From the NCBI RefSeq assembly GCF_050920415.1, contig NZ_CP169309.1: a stretch of 64,000 bases of DNA, one strand, 5' to 3'. This DNA is from Escherichia coli. GTDB taxonomy: Bacteria > Pseudomonadota > Gammaproteobacteria > Enterobacterales > Enterobacteriaceae. Positions 1 through 20,300 of the stretch are shown in pieces. How positions within the stretch are numbered: position 1 is the stretch's first letter; each line of letters begins with the position of its first letter. The position numbers were made by a program, and so were the translations under genes. Under the pieces are notes generated by a model. The model had not been told where the DNA came from. It was given only the letters and a program-made list of their open reading frames with translations, and did no database searches.

Positions 1-731
1 AAATCGCGGCGCATCTGTTGGTTTTTCTCCAGCGTGCTGGCGAGCTGGTTGAAGTCTTGCGCCAGTTTGCCCAATTCATCTTCGCTGGTGGGCGTCACGC
101 GAGTAGTGAAATCGCCCGCTGCCAGTTTGTGTGTACCGTCCACCAGTCGTTTGACCGGAGCCAGCAAACCGCGCGCCAGTGGGAATGTCGCCAGCGCCGC
201 TAACAAGGTAGATAAAGCGACAATCAGCCAACTGGTTTGCCTCTGTTGTCTGTCAAAATTGATGTCGGTATTGCGGGTCAGTCGTTCAACAGGGGAGGCG
301 ATCACCGCACCCACTTCCGCCCCATTGACCATAATGGGCCGCCGTGTGCCGTCTGGTGGAATCGGTGCTCGCGGGCCAACCAGCACTTTGTTGTTTTGAT
401 CAACCACCCAGAATTGCGTGCGCCAACCGTGTGGCGGCATACCGGGGCCGGGCTTATCTTCGTTGTTATCATGCTCCAGCGAACGTAGGATCTGAAATAC
501 AAAGCGATCGTTATTACGCAGGAAGCGCCAGTTCCCGTGCTGGGCGTACTGCTCACCAAGCGCATCGCCGAGCATTTGCAGCCGTTGTTCATTACCATGC
601 TTGATGTAATCGATAAAGCCGCGCTCAAAACTGATACGTACCGCCCAGTGCATCGTGATCAATAAGACAATGCAGGTGGCGAAAATCGCCAGAAACAGTT
701 TGCCGGTAATACCGGGTCGCCAGAACTTCAT
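1..731 (-). CDS. baeS: Envelope-stress sensor histidine kinase BaeS, N-terminal portion (gene continues beyond window start)
   Basis: Reverse complement of 661..731 translates [24 protein letters not shown]; ATG at complement(729..731) overlaps the mdtD stop (ATGA). Absent from ORF track because its stop lies outside the window. Confidence 0.85.
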
Positions 732-2143: not shown

Positions 2144-5100
2144 TTACTCGGTTACCGTTTGTTTAGGTTTACGCGAAAAACGCAGCCGCAGACGGTCAAA
2201 AAAGAGATACACCACTGGCGTGGTATACAGCGTCAGAAGCTGGCTCATTACCAGACCTCCGACAATGGTGATCCCCAGGGGTTGGCGCAGCTCCGAGCCG
2301 TCACCGCCCGACAATACCAACGGCAGCGCACCAAACAGCGCCGCCAGGGTAGTCATCATAATCGGGCGAAAACGCAGCAGACAGGCCTGGAAAATAGCTT
2401 CCTGCGGCGTCAGGTTACCGTGCCGTTGGGCTTCGAGCGCAAAATCGACCATCATAATAGCGTTTTTCTTCACGATGCCGATTAATAGCATGATCCCTAT
2501 CAGGGCGATTAGGCTGAACGGGGCATTGAACAGCTCCAGCGCCAACAGCGCTCCAACGCCCGCCGAGGGCAGGGTGGAGAGAATCGTCAATGGATGTACG
2601 TAACTCTCGTAAAGGATACCCAGCACGATATACACCGTGGCGATGGCTGCGATAATCAGGATCACCTGCGAGTTCATCGTCTCCTGGAATACCTGCGCTG
2701 TTCCGGCAAAACTGCCGCGCACCGTCGAAGGCACACCTAGCTGGGTCATTGCGCGGTCAATCGCCGCACTGGCGTCCGAGAGCGATTTTCCGGTCGGCAA
2801 GTTGAACGAGATGGTCGAGGCCGCCGATAATCCCTGATGATTCACCGACAGCGGGGCATTCGCCGGTTGCCATTTAGCGAAATACGACAGCGGGATCGCT
2901 TTTCCTTCGTTATTAATGACGAACATTTTTTCCAGTGCACTGATGTCCTGGGTATAGCGTGGATCCACTTCCATCACCACTTTATACTGGTTCATGGGCT
3001 GGTAAATGGTCGAGATTTGCCGCTGCCCGAAGGCGTTATTCAACAGGCTGTTGGCGGCCTGCACGTCGATTCCCAGTCGTGCCATAGTGTCGCGGTCGTA
3101 AACCAGATTCATCTCCGCGCCGTTATCCTGCTGGTCGGAATTCACGTCCGCCAGTTCCGGTAACGTTGCCAGTTTTTTGCGGATTTTCGGCTCCCATTCG
3201 CGCAGCGCCGCCAGGTCGTCGGACAGCAACGTGTACTGATAACTGGCGTTCGACTGACGTCCGCCAACGCGAATATCTTGCACCGCCATCAGGAACAGAT
3301 TCGCTCCCGGTTCTTTCGCCAGCTTCACCCGTAGACGGTCGATAATTTGCTGCGCCGTTTCGCTGCGCTCGTCGCGTGGTTTGAGAGTGATAAACATCAT
3401 CCCACTGTTCACCCGCGAGCCACCGGTAAAGCCGGTGACATTATCCACTGCCGGATCGTCACGGATAATTTTCATGAAATCCTGCAACTTACCGCGCATC
3501 GCCTGAAACGAAATGCTCTGATCCGCCTGTATCCCGCCCATCAACACGCCGGTGTCCTGCTCCGGGAAGAAGGTTTTCGGGATCGAGATATACAGCCAGA
3601 TATTCAGCGCAATGGTGCCAAGCAGCACTACACCCACCAGACGGGTATGATTGAGCACCCATTTCAGCGACTTGCCGTAGCCTTGTTGCAGAGCAACCAA
3701 CATGCGACCAAAACCACGCAGACGCTTTTGCTCGCGCGGCTTGCTGGCTTTTAGCATCCAGCCGCACATCATCGGCGTTAACGTCAGGGAAACCAGCAAC
3801 GAAATACCAATGGCGACAGAAAGCGTCACGGCAAATTCGCGTAACAGTCGGCCCGGCAATCCGCCCATCAACAGCAGCGGCAGGAACACCGCCACCAGCG
3901 ACAGACTCATCGACAGCACCGTAAAGCCGACTTCGCGAGTACCTTGCAGCGCGGCTTGCAACGGTTTCATCCCCGCTTCCAGATGACGGGCAATGTTTTC
4001 CAGCACCACGATGGCATCATCCACCACAAAGCCAGTGGCGATGGTCAGCGCCATTAACGAAAGATTATTGAGACTGAAACCACACAGATACATCGCGGCA
4101 AACGTACCAATCAGCGAAACCGGCACCGCAACGGCGGGAATAGTAGTGGCGCGACCCGAGCGCAGGAATAAAAACACCACCAGAATCACCAGCGCCACCG
4201 AGATAATCAGCGTTTGCTCGACTTCCTCCAGTGAGGCGCGAATGGTGGGGGAGCGATCCTGGGCAATTTGCAGATCAATCGCCGCCGGAATGGTCTCCTG
4301 CAACTCCGGTAATTTTGCCCGGATGCTGTCAACCGTCTGGATAATATTGGCTTCCGGCAGCTTGCGGATCATCAGCAAAATAGCCGGTTTAGCGTTGGTC
4401 ATCCCGGCGTTGCGCACATCCTGCACCGAATCGGTCACCGTCGCCACATCGCCCAGACGAACCGCGCCGCCGTTGTTGTAATGAATAATCAGCGGTTGGT
4501 ATTCGGTAGCGGTTTTTAGCTCATCATTGGTCTGTATCTGCCAGCGGTGAGTGCCATCTTCCAGCGCCCCCTGCGGTTTACGCACGTTGGCATTGCTGAT
4601 GGCAGTGCGCACATCGTCCAGCGAGACGCCCTGATTAAACAGCGCCTGCGGGTTCAGCCCAACGCGCACGGCGGGCAACGAGCTGCCGCCGACATCGACA
4701 TCACCGACGCCGTCGATTTGCGAAATTGTCGGAGCCAGTTGCGTCGAGGCGAAATCGTACAGTTCACCTTGCGAATAAGTATCGGATGTCAGCGTGAGGA
4801 TCATAATTGGCGCATCCGAAGGATTCGCTTTGCGATAGGTCGGACGGCTTGGCATCCCACTGGGCAGCAAACTTTGCGCGGCGTTGATCGCCGCCTGCAC
4901 ATCGCGCGCCGCGCCGTTGATATCCCGGTCAAAATCAAACTGCAAAATAATACGCGTGCTGCCAAGCGAACTGCTGGAGGTCATTTCACTGACCCCGGCG
5001 ATGCGCCCAAGTGAGCGCTCCAGCGGCGTGGCGACGGAAGACGCCATTGTCTCCGGTGATGCACCGGGCAGCGAGGCGCTGACCATAATCACCGGAAAAT

Positions 5101-5221
5101 CGACCTGTGGCAGCGGGGCGACCGGCAGCATACGGAAACCCAGTATTCCGCACAGGGTAATGGCGACCGACAGTAAAATCGTCGCCACCGGGCGGTAAAT
5201 GAAGAGGGCAAAAAACTTCAC
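2144..5221 (-). CDS. mdtC: RND multidrug efflux pump subunit MdtC
   Basis: 1025-aa ORF with RND-type conserved segments (e.g. [30 protein letters not shown]); adjacent to mdtB. Confidence 0.95.
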
Positions 5222-8200
5222 TTACGCCTCCTCTTCATGACGGACAAAGCGACTTTTGGTCCACAATGCCAGGCGGTCGAACAGCAGATAAATCACCGGC
5301 GTGGTGAACAGCGTCAGCACCTGGCTAACAATCAGGCCGCCGACCATGCCGATGCCTAACGGACGACGTAGTTCCGCGCCGACTCCGGTGCTCAACATCA
5401 GCGGCAGCGCGCCAAGCAGTGCCGCCAGAGTGGTCATCAGGATCGGACGAAAACGCAGCAAACAGGCCTGGTAAATTGCATCGCGCGGCGACATGCCTTG
5501 CTCGCGCTCGGCAGCCAGCGCGAAGTCGATCATCATGATGGCGTTTTTCTTCACAATACCGATCAGCAAAATAATGCCGATGATGGCGATCACATCCAGC
5601 TCACTTCCGGCAATCATTAGCGCCAGCAGTGCGCCAACACCTGCCGTTGGCAACGTCGAGAGAATGGTGATCGGGTGGATAAAGCTCTCGTACAGAATGC
5701 CGAGCACGATATACATCGCCACCACCGCTGCGACAATCAGCCAGACAGTGCTGCCCAATGCCGACTGGAAGGCGAGGGTGCTGCCCTGGAATTGTGTGGT
5801 GATATCCACCGGCAGATTCAGTGTCTTTTCGGTATCCATAATTGCCTGCACCGCATCACCGAGAGAATAGTTATCCGGCACGTTAAAGGAGATGGTCGTT
5901 ACCGGGAACTGATCCAGATGGTTGATGGAGAGCGGCGCAAAACGCTGCTCAATTTTGGCAATTGAGCTTAACGGCACCACGCCACCGTCGCTGCTGGTCA
6001 GGCGAATGGTATCCAGCGCCGCAAGCCCTGGGGTATTTTCGGTATTGTGCTCCAGCACCACGCGATACTGGTTAGCCTGAGTATAAATAGTGGAAATCAG
6101 CCGCTGACCAAACGCGTTGTACAGGGCGTTATCGACGTCCGCCATGCTGATCCCCAGACGGCTGGCGCTGTCGCGATCAACATTGACATACGCCACCAGC
6201 CCTTTGTCCTGCCAATCGCTGGAGACATCAGAAAGCTGCGGCAGCTGCTGGAGTTTTTCCACGAGTTGCGGCACCCAGGTACTGAGCGCATCCAGCGATG
6301 TGGCCTGCAAGGTAAACTGGTACTGGGTGCGGCTGACCTGAGTATCGATAGTCAGATCCTGCGTTGGTTGCAGGAAGAGATCGACACCCGGCACTTTATC
6401 GACCGCCGATTGCAGACGGGAGATAACTTTTTGCACCCGGTCATCACGTTCATCCAACGGTTTGAGGTTGATCTGTAAACGCGCACTGTTCAGCGACGGG
6501 TTAGTGCCATCAACGCCAACAAACGAGGTCAGACTTTGCACTGCCGGATCCTGCAAAATCACATCCGCGACCTGGCGTTGCCGCTGGGCCATATTGGCAA
6601 AGGAGCTGGACTGCGGTGCCTGCAAAGTGCCCTGAATAATGCCGTTGTCCTGTACCGGGAAGAAACCTTTCGGAATGAACACCCACAATAGAACGCTCAG
6701 CAGCAGCGTGCTGAGCGCCACGCTTAAGGTCAGCCACGGATGATTCAGCACTTTCGCCAGTCCACGACCATAGGCGGCAATTATCCTGTCGAACATTTTT
6801 TCCGAGGCCCGGGAGAAGCGGTTCTGTTTACGCAGCGACTCCTGGCTGAGCATCCGCGCGCACATCATCGGTGTCAGGGTCAGCGACACCACGGCTGAGA
6901 TCAAAATCGCTACCGCCAGGGTAATGGCAAATTCGCGGAACAGTCGCCCGACGATATCGCCCATAAACAGCAGCGGGATCAGCACTGCAATCAGTGAGAA
7001 GGTCAGCGAGATTATGGTAAAGCCGATTTCACCCGCGCCCTTGAGCGCCGCCGCCAACGGTTTTTCGCCTTTTTCGATATAGCGGGAAATGTTTTCGATC
7101 ACCACGATGGCGTCATCGACCACGAATCCGGTGGCGATGGTTAACGCCATCAGCGTCAGGTTATTGATTGAAAAATCGAGAAACACCATAACCGCAAAGG
7201 TGCCAATTAACGACAGCGGCACCGCGACGCCAGGAATGATGGTCGCCGGAATATTGCGCAGAAACAGGTAGATAATCATGACTACCAGCGCGATAGCCAT
7301 CATCAGCTCAAACTGGGTATCGTCGACCGATGCGCGGATATTGGTAGTGCGATCGGAAAGTACCGTCACCTTCACCGATTTCGGCAGACTCTCGGTGAGC
7401 TGTGGCAGCATCTGCCGGATGCTGTCGGCGGTAGAGATAATGTTAGCACCGGGCTGGCGCTGAACATTCATCACAATGGCCTGTTCTTTGTTCGCCCATG
7501 CGCCAAGCCAACTGTTTTCTGCGCCTTGTTCAACGGTTGCGACATCACCAAGACGAATCGGCGCGCCGTTCTGGTAGGCGATAATCAACTGGCGATATTC
7601 ATCTGCAGATTGCATCTGGTCGTTCGCGGAAAGCGTGACCGCGCGGGAAGGGCCGTCGAGGCTACCTTTAGCCGAGTTAACGTTAGCGCCGGTAATGGCG
7701 GTGCGCACGGTTTCGCTGGTCAGGCCGAGGGCGGCAATCGCCTGGGCGTTAAGTTTGACGCGAACAGCCGGACGCTGACCGCCGGAAAGCGTCACCAGCC
7801 CGACGCCGGAAATCTGCGAGATCTTCTGCGCGACGCGGGTTTCCACCATGTCTTCCACTTGCGTCATCGGCATGGCGGTTGATGTGACGGCAAGCGTCAT
7901 GATCGGCGGATCTGCCGGGTTCACTTTGCTGTAAACCGGCGGGTTAGGCAGATCGCTCGGCAACAAGTTGGTCGCAGCGTTAATCGCGGCCTGCACTTCC
8001 TGCTCGGCGACATCCAGCGGTAATGTTAGCTGGAACTGCAAAGTGATAACTGACGCGCCGCCGGAACTTTGCGACGACATCTGTTTCAGGCCGGACATCT
8101 GCCCGAACTGGCGTTCGAGCGGTGCGGTAACGGCAGAGGTCATGACATCCGGGCTGGCACCTGGGTAGAGGGTGACCACCTGAATGGTTGGATAGTCCAC

Positions 8201-8344
8201 TTCCGGCAGCGCCGAAACGGGCAGGGCACGATAACCGATAATCCCGGCGAGTAAGATCGCCACCATCAGCAGCGTGGTGGCGACAGGACGCATAATAAAC
8301 AGGCGCGACGGGCCGCCTGTGCTGCTCGGGGGTAACACCTGCAT
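5222..8344 (-). CDS. mdtB: RND multidrug efflux pump subunit MdtB
   Basis: 1040-aa ORF paralogous to the mdtC product; stop/start overlap with mdtA. Confidence 0.95.
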
Positions 8345-9591
8345 CAGGAGCGTGCTCCTTTTTTCACGTATTCGCGGCTGGTGGCTTTCTCTTCCGAAGT
8401 GGTGGCGCTTTGAGCTTCAACCACTTCCACTTTCGCCCCTTCGGTCAGACGATCAATGCCATCCGTCACTACGCGGTCGCCTGCAGAAATACCTGCGCGG
8501 ATCACCACTTTCTGACTGTCCTGAATGCCCGGCGTCACCAGATGTTTGCTGACTTTGTTTTCGCTATTCAGCACCCAGACAAAATGGCCTTCGTTGCCCA
8601 TTTGCAGGGCGGCGGTGGGGATCACCACGGCGTTTTGTTCGGTGTCGACTAACATGCGAGCGTTAACAAACTGATTGGGAAACAGCGCATCATCCTGATT
8701 ATTAAAGCGTGCTTTCACTTTAATCGTACCGGTAGTGGCATCGATTTGGTTATCGAGACTTAACAGCGTGCCTTCACTTAATTTCTTCGAGTTGGTGCGA
8801 TCCCAGGCTTCAACAACCAGCGGTTTTCCGGCTTTTTGCGCCTGTACTACGGTAGTGATATCGCTTTCCGGCAGGGTAAAGAGCAAATCGATAGGATGCG
8901 TCTGGGTGATCACCACAATCCCGGTGGTATCACCACTGGAGATTTGGTTACCAACATCAACCTGCTTGAGACCAACGCGACCATCGACTGGTGCGGTGAT
9001 GCGGCTCCAGTCGAGTTGCAGCTGCGCACTGGCGACGCTCGCTTCATCAGCCTTAATGGTACCTTCGGTTTCACTGACCAGCGCCTGTTGGGCATCCAAT
9101 TCCTGACGGGAGACGAGATTGGTTTTTGCCAGTTGCTGATAACGCGCTAAATCACGGCGGGCGTTGGCTAGCGTGGCTTTATCTTTTGCCAGTTGCCCCT
9201 GAGCTTGTGCTAATGCAACTTTGAACTGGCTGGGGTCAATTTCTGCCAGTAAATCGCCTGCTTTGACCTGCTGACCCTCCTGGAAATGTAATGCCATCAG
9301 TTGACCATCTACGCGACTGCGCACCGTAACGGTGTTAGCAGCGGTAATCGTACCAAGCCCGGTGAGGTAACGCGGAACCGCCTGTTCCACGGCAGTTGCT
9401 GCCTGAACCGGGGCCAATGGGCCGGAACGCATACCACGGCGGCCACCGGCTGGCGACTGCTGTGCTTGCTTCGTCGCACCTGGCGCTGCGCTCTGGGATT
9501 CATTGCGGCCTTGCCAGAACCAGAAAGCGGCGATGGCGGCGATAACCACCACGATTACGATTACCCAACGGGATTTATAACTGCCTTTCAT
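8344..9591 (-). CDS. mdtA: Membrane fusion (periplasmic adaptor) protein MdtA
   Basis: ORF track gives a 464-aa frame; the likely start is the internal ATG at complement(9589..9591), giving [26 protein letters not shown]... (415 aa) with an N-terminal anchor helix. Confidence 0.88.
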
Positions 9592-9644
9592 CGTTAAGAG
9601 TTTCTCTTCCTGAAACGTTTCGCGGAATGATACTAGTGTAGCCA

Positions 9645-9662
9645 GCCAATAAGGGAGAAAAA
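9645..9662 (-). promoter_or_regulatory. Candidate BaeR response-regulator box in the mdtA promoter
   Basis: Minus strand reads TTTTTCTCCCTTATTGGC, a 17/18 match to my recalled BaeR consensus TTTTTCTCCATDATTGGC; ~55-70 nt upstream of the mdtA start. Confidence 0.45.
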
Positions 9663-9814
9663 TGGAGGAATTATGAAACACTGTCGGGAATCGTCTGAAT
9701 GACGGGCACTTTTGCGAGCACGCATCCAGTAATAACACAGGAAACTATTTTATCTACGCGTTAGCGATAGACTGCATTAAGGGCAAAAGGAGGTAGGCCG
9801 ACGATTTCAGCGGG

Positions 9815-9975
9815 ACGCTGAAACGGGAAAGCCCCTCCCGAGGAAGGGGCCTTAAATAAGGAAAGGGTCATGATGAAGTGGATCATCATCGTGGTGCTCT
9901 TAGTCGTTAGCTACCCAGCTTACTAAGACTACCAGGGCGGGGGAAACCCCGCTCTACCCTCACTCCTGAAAGTAT
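9815..9975 (-). ncRNA. Sib-family antisense sRNA (antitoxin), copy 1; boundaries approximate
   Basis: Inferred from the known Sib/Ibs geometry (sRNA fully overlaps the toxin ORF on the opposite strand); minus-strand hairpin GCCCCUUCC-UCG-GGAGGGGC followed by a U-containing tract near 9820-9845 could be its terminator. Confidence 0.4.
9870..9926 (+). CDS. Ibs-family type I toxin, copy 1 (18 aa: MMKWIIIVVLLVVSYPAY)
   Basis: ATG ATG AAG ... TAC TAA read directly; preceded by aaggaaagg Shine-Dalgarno; not in ORF track (below size cutoff). Resembles E. coli IbsA/IbsB peptides. Confidence 0.6.
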   Translation: MMKWIIIVVLLVVSYPAY

Positions 9976-10142
9976 GCCTTCACAATCAGATTGTCAATCC
10001 GCAGGCTTTGTAGTCTGCGATCCTGCCAGCAAATATTCTTTGCGAGACGTTACGCAATAATCACAGATGAAACTATTTTATCTACGCGTTAGCGATAGAC
10101 TGCATTCAGGGCAAAAGGAGGTAGGCCGCCGATTTCAGCGGG

Positions 10143-10303
10143 ACGCTGAAACGGGAAAGCCCCTCCCGAGGAAGGGGCCTTAAATAAGGAAAGGGTCATG
10201 ATGAAGATACTCATCATCGTGGTGCTCTTAGTCATTAGCTTACCGGCTTACTAAGACTACCAGGGCGGGGGAAACCCCGCTCTACCCTCACTCCTGAAAG
10301 TAT
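10143..10303 (-). ncRNA. Sib-family antisense sRNA, copy 2; boundaries approximate
   Basis: By position relative to Ibs copy 2, same repeat unit. Confidence 0.4.
10198..10254 (+). CDS. Ibs-family type I toxin, copy 2 (18 aa: MMKILIIVVLLVISLPAY)
   Basis: Same architecture as copy 1, 328 bp downstream. Confidence 0.6.
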   Translation: MMKILIIVVLLVISLPAY

Positions 10304-10470
10304 GCCTTCACAATCAGATTGTCAATCCGCAGGCTTTGTAGTCTGCGATCCTGCCAGCAAATATTCTTTGCGAGACGTTACGCAATAATCACATGTGAAA
10401 CTATTTTATCTGCAAGTTAGCGATAGACTGCTTGCATGGCGAAAGGAGGTAGGCCGCCGATTTCAGCGGG

Positions 10471-10631
10471 ACGCTGAAACGGGAAAGCCCCTCCCGAGGA
10501 AGGGGCCTTAAATAAGGAAAGGGTCATGATGAAGCTACTCATCATCGTGGTGCTCTTAGTTATTAGCTGGCCAGCTTACTAAGACTACCAGGGCGGGGGA
10601 AACCCCGCTCTACCCTCACTCCTGAAGTTAT
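10471..10631 (-). ncRNA. Sib-family antisense sRNA, copy 3; boundaries approximate
   Basis: By position relative to Ibs copy 3; the 5' flank of this unit is divergent so the sRNA may be altered. Confidence 0.3.
10526..10582 (+). CDS. Ibs-family type I toxin, copy 3 (18 aa: MMKLLIIVVLLVISWPAY)
   Basis: Same architecture; the distal part of this repeat unit diverges after the ORF. Confidence 0.55.
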   Translation: MMKLLIIVVLLVISWPAY

Positions 10632-10799
10632 GTTACTCCACCCTTATTGTCAATCTGTAAGTCCACGTTCTTGCGGGGCGAATAGCAAAACCCTCTGCGC
10701 TTATGGGCCGAATTCTGAAAGTTGCTTTGCCTGCTCTTATTTCATTATTGCAGTCGGTATGATACCGGACCTCAATAATTCTCTAAGAAAGGATTTCTT

Positions 10800-17346: not shown

Positions 17347-20300
17347 TCAGTTAATCGCGAAATAACTGTTATTCACCAGCAAATCCAACGGTTGGGCATC
17401 GGCAATCACATCACCATAAATCAGATCAACGCCGATGCCAGAAAGCGTATCCATCACTAAGGGTAAAACAACTGGCCCGGCGATAGTCTTCACCCCGAGT
17501 CGCTGAGCGTGCCCCTGAATAATCGTAATCAGCATCTCATCCATCAAATTACCCTGCACGCTGGCGCATAGCTCACCGTCAAGTAGCAGGTAATCTGCCA
17601 TATTCGCTTTCAGCGTGTTGAAAATTTGCAGATCGCGACCCACCTGGCTGAGCACTATCCGACATCCCGCCAGCCGTAGTTTTTGCACGCTTTCTGCGTG
17701 ATCGAAAACCGCTTCTGCCGGAATAATCAGATGTAATAACCGTGGTGGTAGAGGGCTATTTTCCAGCTGCTCAATTAGTTCATTCACCAGCGAGGCGCTA
17801 CTCAAACCGGCAACAGAAAGGGGGAGGGCGATGCTTAAGCCTTTACTGGCAATCGCTTTTGCGGTCTGCTGGAAAAATTCATTGAGTACCCGGCGGTCAA
17901 GAGCATGGTTAAGCGCCGGATCACTGAAGCTACGACGAAATGTTTGTTCATCAAAAATCTCGCCTTCGCAACCCCAGAGTTTTAGTGATATCAACCACAA
18001 ATTACGCGCTTCCGGGATCCGTGGCGAAGCGACGCCGTGGGCGATCATCATCAACTGATTCTCTTTAATCATCCGCCACTGTTCATCAATCGACATCGCC
18101 GCCCGTTCGCTATGTGCGTCAGCATGCTGCGGTTCGTAAACTGTCACCCGGCCGCGGCCACCATTTTTGGAGGCATAACAGGCGATGTCAGCCTGCGACA
18201 TCACTTCAACCGCCTGATGATTGTTGTCATCAATCAAGGTAATCCCGGCACTGGCACCTACCCGATGTACACGTCCTTCCCATATAAAGTGATAGTCATT
18301 CACGGCACTGATAATGCGTGTAGCGATAAAACGCGCACTTTCGACATTACAATCTGGCAGCAGCAGACCAAATTCATCGCCACCGAGTCGCGCCAGCACG
18401 TCGCTGGAGCGCAGCATACTCAGCATCAATGACGCCAGTTCGCGCAACAAAGCGTCGCCAGCGGCGTGTCCGGCGCTGTCATTCACCGCTTTAAAGCGAT
18501 CAAGATCGATAAACACCAGTGCATGTCGCTGATGTGTACTGTTTACCGTTTGCAGCAGGATGCGTAGTTGCTTCTCAAAACTGGCGCGATTGGCGAGATG
18601 CGTCAGTGCATCATGGGAGGCGCTGTAGCTCAGCTGCCGTAACATTTTGCGTGATTCGGTGACGTCCTGAATCACCAGAACCGAACCAATATTGCTGCCA
18701 TCCAGAGTACTTAGCGGTGTAATACTGTAATGCACGTCGTAGCTGCCGCCGCTTCGACAGTGCAACACTACATCTTGTTCAATCGCGGAACGCGAGGTGT
18801 CGGCACTGTAAATGTTCTCCATTAATGGCCCGTTGTCGCCAAAAGTAATATGCAACACCGTCAGGAGCGGAACACCTAACGCTTCTTCCTGCGTCCAGCC
18901 GCTCATCTTCTCCGCCACTGGATTCATAAAGGTAATTTTCATCGCCATGTCAATACAGACCACGGCTTCGCCGATGGAGTCCAGCGTAATATGCAGGCGC
19001 TCTTTTTCCTGAAACAGTGCCTCGTTAAGCTGTTTCACTTCAGTCATATCCATATTGATGCCAAGCAGGCGTTCAACTTCGCCTTCTTTATTCAGTACCC
19101 GGTTGGCGAGGGCGCGGATATGGCGGATACCGTCTTTCACGGCAATGCGAAATTCCAGTTTAAAGGGAGAGCGCGATTGCAATGAATCGCGAATCACTTT
19201 TTCGGCGTGCTGGCGATCTTCCGGCAGCACGCATTCGTACCACACCTGCCAGTTCGGTTTGATATGCGGAGGAATTTCATACAGCTCGAACATCCGCTTA
19301 TCCCAGCTAAAAATATTCGGCTTTAGCTCCCACTCCCAGATGCCAATCCCGCCCGCTTCGTTAGCCAGCGTGATGCGCTCCATCAGTTGCTGGTTCACCT
19401 GTTCGGTGCGTTTTAGCTCGTTAATGTCTTCAATCTGAGCGATAAAATAGAGCGGCGTACCATCGGTGTGGCGCACCAGTGAGACGGCAAGCAACGCCCA
19501 GACAACATCGCCATTGCGGTTGTAGTAGCGTTTTTCCATTGAATAGGTGTTTATTTCACCGCTTATCAGCTTTTCAACCTGTTGCAGATCTTTATTGAGA
19601 TCCTCCGGCCAGGTCAGTTGCTGAAAGGTAAGTCCGCGCAGTTCTTCCTGACTGTAACCGAGAAACTGGCAGAGCGCTTTGTTGGATTGCAGCCATTGCC
19701 CCTCGGTGCCCACTAATGCCATGCCGATGGCGGAATATTCCATCGCGTTCCGAAAGCGGGTTTCGCTTTCGGAAATGTGTTTGCGTTCCGCACGAAAGGC
19801 ATACATCACCATCGTCATGATGTTGGCGGGCAGCAGGATCAGCAAAAACGGTAGCCACGGCATATGGCTCATCAGGTATGTACGCGGCGTAGCAAGCAGG
19901 GAGGGATCAGCGGCCATCATCAGTGACACCATCATCACCGTGGTAAGGAAGATCAAAAAGGCTTCCATTCGTGGCAGGCGCACGGCGCTCCACATCAACA
20001 GCACAATAATGAAAGTAAAAGGCCACGGCAGATACAGCATCGAAAGCCAGCTTAACGTCAGTGTGATGGCTAACGTGAGCAGCGACTCAAAAAGCAACCT
20101 TGGGTTGCGATGGCGCAGCAGATAGTGTGGTTTAAATAACAATCCCAGCGGCACCAGTGCCAGGGCGCCGATGGATTCTGACAGTACCCATATCAAAAAT
20201 GCCCTGAGAGGATCGTCTCCGGGCGTCAGCAGGATAACCAGAATACCCCCTAACAGAGGTGGAACAATGGCGCTGCCGAGTGCCAGACGCAGCCAGTCAG

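Follow-up and report, generated by a model that had tools for sequence, protein, structure and literature searches.

The analysed window, a 64 kb stretch of Escherichia coli DNA, begins within the mdtABCD–baeSR drug-efflux operon, the first gene of which, mdtA (8344..9591, minus strand; 415 aa), was assigned from the RefSeq annotation of an identical genome. It is followed contiguously on the same strand by mdtB (5222-8344), mdtC (2144-5221) and mdtD (728-2143), and then by the 5' part of baeS (1..731, minus strand), the translation of which gives the first 243 codons before the gene is cut by the window edge. The mdtA and mdtB genes overlap, mdtB and mdtC abut, as do mdtC and mdtD, and mdtD overlaps baeS; because the genes abut or overlap, there is no room for terminators from mdtA through baeS. 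The baeR gene lies outside the window, and the order of baeS and baeR was read in NZ_CP169399.1 (E. coli MFDS1022581), which shows no difference from the window in the 10,157 nt compared and in which the same open reading frame is annotated as mdtA by RefSeq. In this genome baeR comes directly after baeS, with overlapping stop and start codons. The order mdtA, mdtB, mdtC, mdtD, baeS, baeR is thus co-directional and contiguous, its baeR end being taken from NZ_CP169399.1 only. The BaeR encoded there is full length and differs from that of K-12 by two substitutions, S214A and A217E, which fall just after the predicted recognition helix (baeR at positions 1753-2475 of the NZ_CP169399.1 locus, L004); the BaeS of the same genome differs from K-12 at 15 positions.

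An alternative start of mdtA at a GTG at 9738, which appears in the open-reading-frame list and would lengthen the protein to 464 aa (extension 9592-9738, minus strand), was rejected in favour of the ATG at 9591, because the conserved promoter and operator lie inside the extension and because RefSeq annotates the ATG.

Between yegL and mdtA the strain carries three tandem Sib/Ibs type I toxin–antitoxin modules, where K-12 has two (sibA/ibsA and sibB/ibsB). The Sib RNAs (9855-9997, 10183-10325 and 10511-10653, all on the minus strand) match Rfam SIB_RNA with 138-140 bits each, and the ibs open reading frames of these modules are encoded by the plus strand, with 9871 as the start of the first. 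The proximal Sib RNA is co-directional with mdtA and, when aligned to sibB of K-12, ends ~235 nt before the start codon of mdtA.

The BaeR box, the stress regulator BaeR and the autoregulatory loop are already known. Their description in E. coli K-12 is reported to date from 2002 to 2005, and the footprint, EMSA and primer-extension work is said to be that of Baranova & Nikaido in 2002, Nishino in 2005, Hirakawa in 2005 and Yamamoto in 2008. The reported BaeR sites are four in number, namely spy, mdt-bae, acrD and ycaC (PMC2731931).

The BaeR box of the mdtA promoter

The original prediction was that a near-perfect BaeR recognition sequence is located on the minus strand about 55-70 nt upstream of the mdtA start. 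When the sequence was re-read, the minus strand from 9662 to 9645 indeed ran TTTTTCTCCCTTATTGGC, and this 18-mer occupies -71 to -54 relative to the mdtA ATG (9591, minus strand). The consensus behind the prediction proved to be accurate, since TTTTTCTCCATDATTGGC (Nishino et al., 2005) is the sequence quoted in PMC3799227, PMC3915751 and PMC11644481. The two sequences agree at 17 of 18 positions, the sole mismatch being C for A at position 10. On the basis of this match, of identity to K-12 and of the ChIP-exo peak described below, the 18-mer (9645..9662, minus strand) is the published BaeR box of mdtA, and it stands upstream of a gene of the BaeR regulon.

A search of all 64 kb for the consensus, with ≤1 mismatch allowed, found the 18-mer and nothing else, and 100 dinucleotide-preserving shuffles of this DNA yielded no match at the same threshold. 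The only other match at ≤3 mismatches (18812-18829, three mismatches) lies inside an open reading frame of 1,105 aa and was rejected as chance. A chance resemblance without a regulatory role might also be considered for the box itself, since short motifs can arise randomly; nothing else speaks in its favour. However, this reading is effectively refuted, and its probability is negligible, given the empty shuffles and an element that lies in the expected promoter, is identical to an experimentally studied K-12 site, is located under a ChIP-exo peak and is invariant across E. coli.

Base for base, the window and K-12 MG1655 agree from -94 to +7 of mdtA in an ungapped, ATG-anchored comparison, and the nearest promoter differences are at -95 and -119. 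The 18-mer is identical to MG1655 2153945-2153962. The consensus match is in part circular, because the same 18-mer occurs in K-12 mdtA, which is one of the few sequences behind the consensus; what had been noticed is a re-identified known site and no new instance. Furthermore, of the 5,417 matching E. coli records, 5,291 (~98%) carry an exact copy of the 54-mer at 9680-9627, which extends from the repeats through the box to the -10 region, so that nothing about it is strain-specific. The surrounding 801 bp are only ~93% identical in most E. coli genomes. Most of this ~7% divergence from typical E. coli is in the Sib/Ibs region and not in the promoter core.

Occupancy and expression in K-12

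The functional evidence consists of K-12 data, which are carried over to this strain by sequence identity. In MG1655, the region upstream of mdtA contains two BaeR ChIP-exo peaks (PMC7657598 Data Set S2). The first, peak_5 (MG1655 2153931-2153967; S/N 10.96), corresponds to 9640..9676 on the minus strand of the window, the mapping and the identity having been checked, and it contains the 18-mer and reaches 14 nt upstream of it (PMC7657598). The prediction had named comparison with published binding as its check, and in this comparison the box and the in vivo signal coincide. The second, peak_6 (MG1655 2153972-2153998; S/N 14.99), maps to 9635-9609 and begins at the -10-like TAGTAT (PMC7657598). 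Occupancy of the promoter in the present strain would follow by transfer from K-12 only, through the identical sequence inside peak_5.

In the same K-12 study, deletion of baeR under ethanol stress lowered mdtA by log2 4.0 (~16-fold) and baeS by log2 4.6, and mdtA, mdtB, mdtC, iceT (mdtD) and baeS were all down by log2 3.4-4.6 (PMC7657598). In vivo occupancy by BaeR and BaeR-dependent expression have thus been shown for K-12 in the cited data. Autoregulation of mdtABCD-baeSR, which the original prediction took the box to support 'in this strain', is itself stated in the literature (PMC2731931; PMC3219618), and the reference to this strain adds nothing to it.

At K-12 spy (NC_000913.3), the ChIP-exo peaks at 1825677-1825711 and 1825823-1825843 flank the published box (1825764-1825781) by ~40-50 bp on each side, in contrast to mdtA, where one peak covers the box precisely. 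Because both spy peaks flank the published box rather than cover it, the dataset lacks base-pair accuracy.

Direct repeats around the box

Dimers of the OmpR/PhoB family require two direct repeats. The 18-mer consists of a T-tract, one CTCC-type core and the ATTGGC that comes after this core. In the promoter as a whole the layout is TTTCAT-N5-CTCCAT-N4-CTCCCT, that is, direct repeats of the OmpR/PhoB type with a spacing of 10-11 bp. The putative distal half-site, HS1 (TTTCAT; 9673..9678, minus strand), lies 11 bp upstream of the central one, HS2 (CTCCAT; 9662..9667, minus strand), which has a perfect CTNCA core; the proximal one, HS3 (CTCCCT; 9652..9657, minus strand), follows HS2 at 10 bp and forms the core of the 18-mer. 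In the same region TTCCTCCATT (9670-9661), just upstream of the 18-mer, and TTTCTCCCTT (9660-9651) are direct repeats with a 10-bp period.

The K-12 BaeR boxes of spy (TTTTTCTCCATAATTGGC) and acrD (TTTTTCTCCACGATTGGC) can be compared directly, HS3 aligning with the CTCCAT of the former and the CTCCAC of the latter. The half-site layouts are CTCCAT-N5-TTTCTT-N5-CTCCATAATTGGC at spy, CTCCTT-N5-CTCCACGATTGGC at acrD and TTTCAT-N5-CTCCAT-N4-CTCCCTTATTGGC at mdtA. Like mdtA, both of the other promoters combine the 18-mer layout with an extra CTCCnT 10-11 bp upstream and outside the 18-mer; in spy and acrD the upstream CTCCnT is followed by five bases and then by CTCCAY-nATTGGC. The half-site spacing is 11 bp in spy and acrD, whereas it is 10 bp for the proximal pair of mdtA, and the proximal core is CTCCAY in the former and CTCCCT in the latter. 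The distance to the gene also differs, the spy box being ~140-156 nt from the ATG and the mdtA box 54-71 nt. Judged from these alignments, the published 18-mer would be a proximal half-site plus T-tract. The occurrence of CTCCnn-nATTGGC in three unrelated K-12 promoters is an argument for a functional proximal element in E. coli, although at mdtA it is lineage-specific, as described below.

The simplest reading, which underlay the original prediction, is that the BaeR site is complete in the 18-mer, to which one dimer binds, the upstream repeats being irrelevant. It agrees with the description of the published 18-mer consensus as dimer-bound (PMC11644481), with the single BaeR site at its own promoter that is listed in one compilation (PMC3219618), and with the fact that the 18-mer is common to K-12 mdtA, spy and acrD. 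However, a second CTCCnT is found 10-11 bp upstream, outside the 18-mer, in all three K-12 promoters, and peak_5 extends beyond the 18-mer on that side. Furthermore, the 18-mer contains one CTCC core only, while a dimer of this family needs two repeats, and it is the upstream repeats that are conserved among species, 13 of the 18 bases of the 18-mer not being so. We regard this reading as very unlikely. Instead, the operator would comprise three repeats, of which the 18-mer covers only the promoter-proximal part.

Conservation across Enterobacteriaceae

One genome per species was sampled across Enterobacteriaceae, giving 80 mdtA loci, and 79 of these promoters reached far enough upstream to enter a gapless alignment with the window that was anchored on the conserved TAGTAT. 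Two near-invariant blocks emerged, at 9678-9658 (TTTCATAATTCCTCCATTTTT) and at 9644-9626 (T..CTAnACTAGTATCATT), and there are no indels between HS1, HS2 and the -10 block among the 79 species. The first block (9658..9678, minus strand; 21 nt) comprises HS1, HS2 and the T-tract; over 75 distinct promoters, 19 of the 21 columns reach at least 1.5 bits, and the 58 species outside Escherichia and Citrobacter have a mean identity of 0.92 to the window in this block. HS2 is exact in 74 of the 79 species, and HS1 is TTTCAT in 50 and TTCCAT in 18.

The 13 positions between the two blocks (9657-9645; CTCCCTTATTGGC), the greater part of the 18-mer, form a poorly conserved gap with 0.1-0.96 bits per column. 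HS3 is present in 19 of the 79 species, the carriers being labelled Escherichia or Citrobacter, with the exception of one Citrobacter-like MAG labelled Raoultella. In the 58 species outside these two genera the identity of HS3 is 0.32, which is near random, and 57 of them depart from the consensus at 5-11 positions of the orthologous 18-mer. This divergence is no alignment artefact, because both flanking blocks are in register in all sequences. Outside Escherichia and Citrobacter, the 18-mer is the least conserved part of the operator.

These data bear on a second alternative, in which BaeR binds the distal pair TTTCAT-N5-CTCCAT only, while CTCCCTTATTGGC, the 3' two-thirds of the 18-mer, is -35 or spacer DNA or the site of another factor and resembles the consensus through circularity. 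The near-random HS3 and the mismatched orthologous 18-mers outside Escherichia and Citrobacter favour it, as does the position of the one mismatch of the box, which sits in the CTNCA core, while the core of HS2 is perfect; moreover, two repeats 11 bp apart suffice for DzrR and AdeR (PMC10052836; PMC5766154). However, the unrelated K-12 promoters spy and acrD carry CTCCAY-nATTGGC, at spy at a quite different distance from the gene, which is hard to explain unless this element is recognised, and ~98% of E. coli genomes have the 18-mer unchanged, although the sequence close to it is variable. We therefore consider binding to the distal pair only to be rather unlikely. The three-repeat operator is preferred; the lack of conservation of HS3 and ATTGGC outside Escherichia and Citrobacter, their role in binding being putative, counts against it.

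As a modest addition, the alignment suggests that across Enterobacteriaceae the operator of mdtA has its conserved core in the distal TTYCAT-N5-CTCCAT pair and not in the E. coli 18-mer. Whether the conserved BaeR operator at mdtA is this distal pair, with the 11-bp spacing of the AdeR/DzrR type, and the 18-mer a third half-site confined to Escherichia and Citrobacter, is in our estimation evenly balanced. If so, the published consensus is centred on E. coli, and in most other Enterobacteriaceae the orthologous site barely matches it, the best match lying 10 bp upstream, on the distal repeats.

Putative core promoter and flanking motifs

The second invariant block (9626..9644, minus strand; T..CTACACTAGTATCATT), recognised from the cross-species conservation and overlapped by peak_6, is the presumed core promoter. 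It contains three overlapping -10-like hexamers read from the sequence, all on the minus strand, namely TACACT (9640-9635), which lies within a sigmaS-like CTACACT, TAGTAT (9635-9630) and TATCAT (9632-9627), and depending on the hexamer chosen the -10-like element starts 8-21 nt downstream of HS3. The -10 assignment and the corresponding transcription start are putative. The mdt operon is listed as sigmaS-dependent in EcoCyc, according to PMC2731931. A sigma70 consensus scan found no promoter at the invariant block and no good -35. The sole promoter-like match of the sigma70/terminator scan, a weak TTCAGA-18-CATAAT (9699-9670), was rejected as the main promoter, because it is no more than chance expects and its start would fall inside the operator.

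With regard to other regulators, none of the 91 matches to the CpxR consensus (GTAAA-N5-GTAAA) at ≤2 mismatches is within 9592-9760, and the action of CpxR at mdtA has been reported to be BaeR-dependent (PMC2731931). Upstream of the repeats, the minus strand at 9700-9680 shows semi-conserved patches, cAGAC..ATTCC..GACAGt, with ~1.0-1.5 bits over the 75 promoters. They overlap the sigma70-like TTCAGA-18-CATAAT, the -10 of which lies over HS1, and could be the site of a second regulator or a basal promoter. On the other side, GTTTCAGGAnGAGA (9616-9602, minus strand), in the presumed mdtA leader, is conserved across genera; its purine-rich part is 12-20 nt before the ATG, beyond typical Shine–Dalgarno spacing.

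Discussion

The element is very probably the known BaeR operator of the E. coli mdtABCD–baeSR promoter, for which a three-repeat site, PhoB-like activation and autoregulation offer the best explanation. Phosphorylated BaeR (BaeR-P) would bind head-to-tail to the CTCCAT-like direct repeats, 10-11 bp apart, at 9678-9673, 9667-9662 and 9657-9652, which are directly upstream of the invariant -10 block (9644-9626) and would overlap the -35 position. Because of this presumed placement of the repeats, and because there is no good -35, BaeR would most likely recruit RNA polymerase, as PhoB does. Transcription would continue through mdtA, mdtB, mdtC, mdtD, baeS and baeR, and a transcript that runs through to baeR would allow BaeR to raise its own level, in a positive autoregulation. 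In this scheme the assignment of the half-sites, their position relative to the transcription start and a contact between BaeR and sigma are what we infer from the arrangement of the promoter.

The observation that led to this analysis is correct but ordinary, since the site is published and is identical to that of K-12 and of ~98% of E. coli genomes. For discovery it matters little, the promoter being the same as in K-12. Its practical value is one of annotation, in that an intact MdtABC efflux operon under BaeSR control can be assigned to the strain. The cross-genus footprint is the only added value, and it suggests that searches for BaeR sites beyond E. coli should use tandem ~11-bp CTCCAT-like repeats and not the 18-mer.

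Comparison with known systems

The closest system is the BaeR box of K-12 mdtA, which has the same 18-mer, the same promoter from -94 to +7, the same distance to the ATG and the same downstream operon, with no difference in the element; the strain differs from K-12 in the number of Sib/Ibs modules upstream.

Similar operators are known for AdeR and DzrR, which are different regulators from BaeR. The DNase I footprint of DzrR (Dickeya/Burkholderia) contains two CTCCAT repeats 11 bp apart (PMC10052836). AdeR (Acinetobacter) binds AAGTGTGGAG-N-AAGTGTGGAG, the other strand of which reads CTCCACACTT, repeated at 11 bp, and in the AdeR–DNA crystal structure two DNA-binding domains are located on the two repeats (PMC5766154). 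These operators share with HS1 and HS2 of mdtA the CTCCAC/CTCCAT hexamer core, the arrangement as 11-bp direct repeats and the position upstream of RND efflux operons. The possibility that AdeR is an especially close relative of BaeR was rejected by sequence comparison, and the parallel is therefore limited to the DNA motif.

Among well characterised solved domains, the DNA-binding domain of BaeR is closest to that of PhoB, with CpxR and AdeR next. The PhoB matches include the tandem PhoB–DNA complex 1GXP and the PhoB–sigma4–DNA complex 3T72, and the only BaeR structure found, 4B09, is without DNA. PhoB activates transcription by recruiting RNA polymerase, the tandem repeats of the pho box replacing the -35. 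The recognition sequence of the pho box differs from that of BaeR; nevertheless, it resembles the mdtA operator in being bound by a regulator of the OmpR/PhoB family, in consisting of direct repeats with a period of ~11 bp and, as presumed for mdtA from the putative -10, in being placed next to or across the -35 region where a good -35 is missing.
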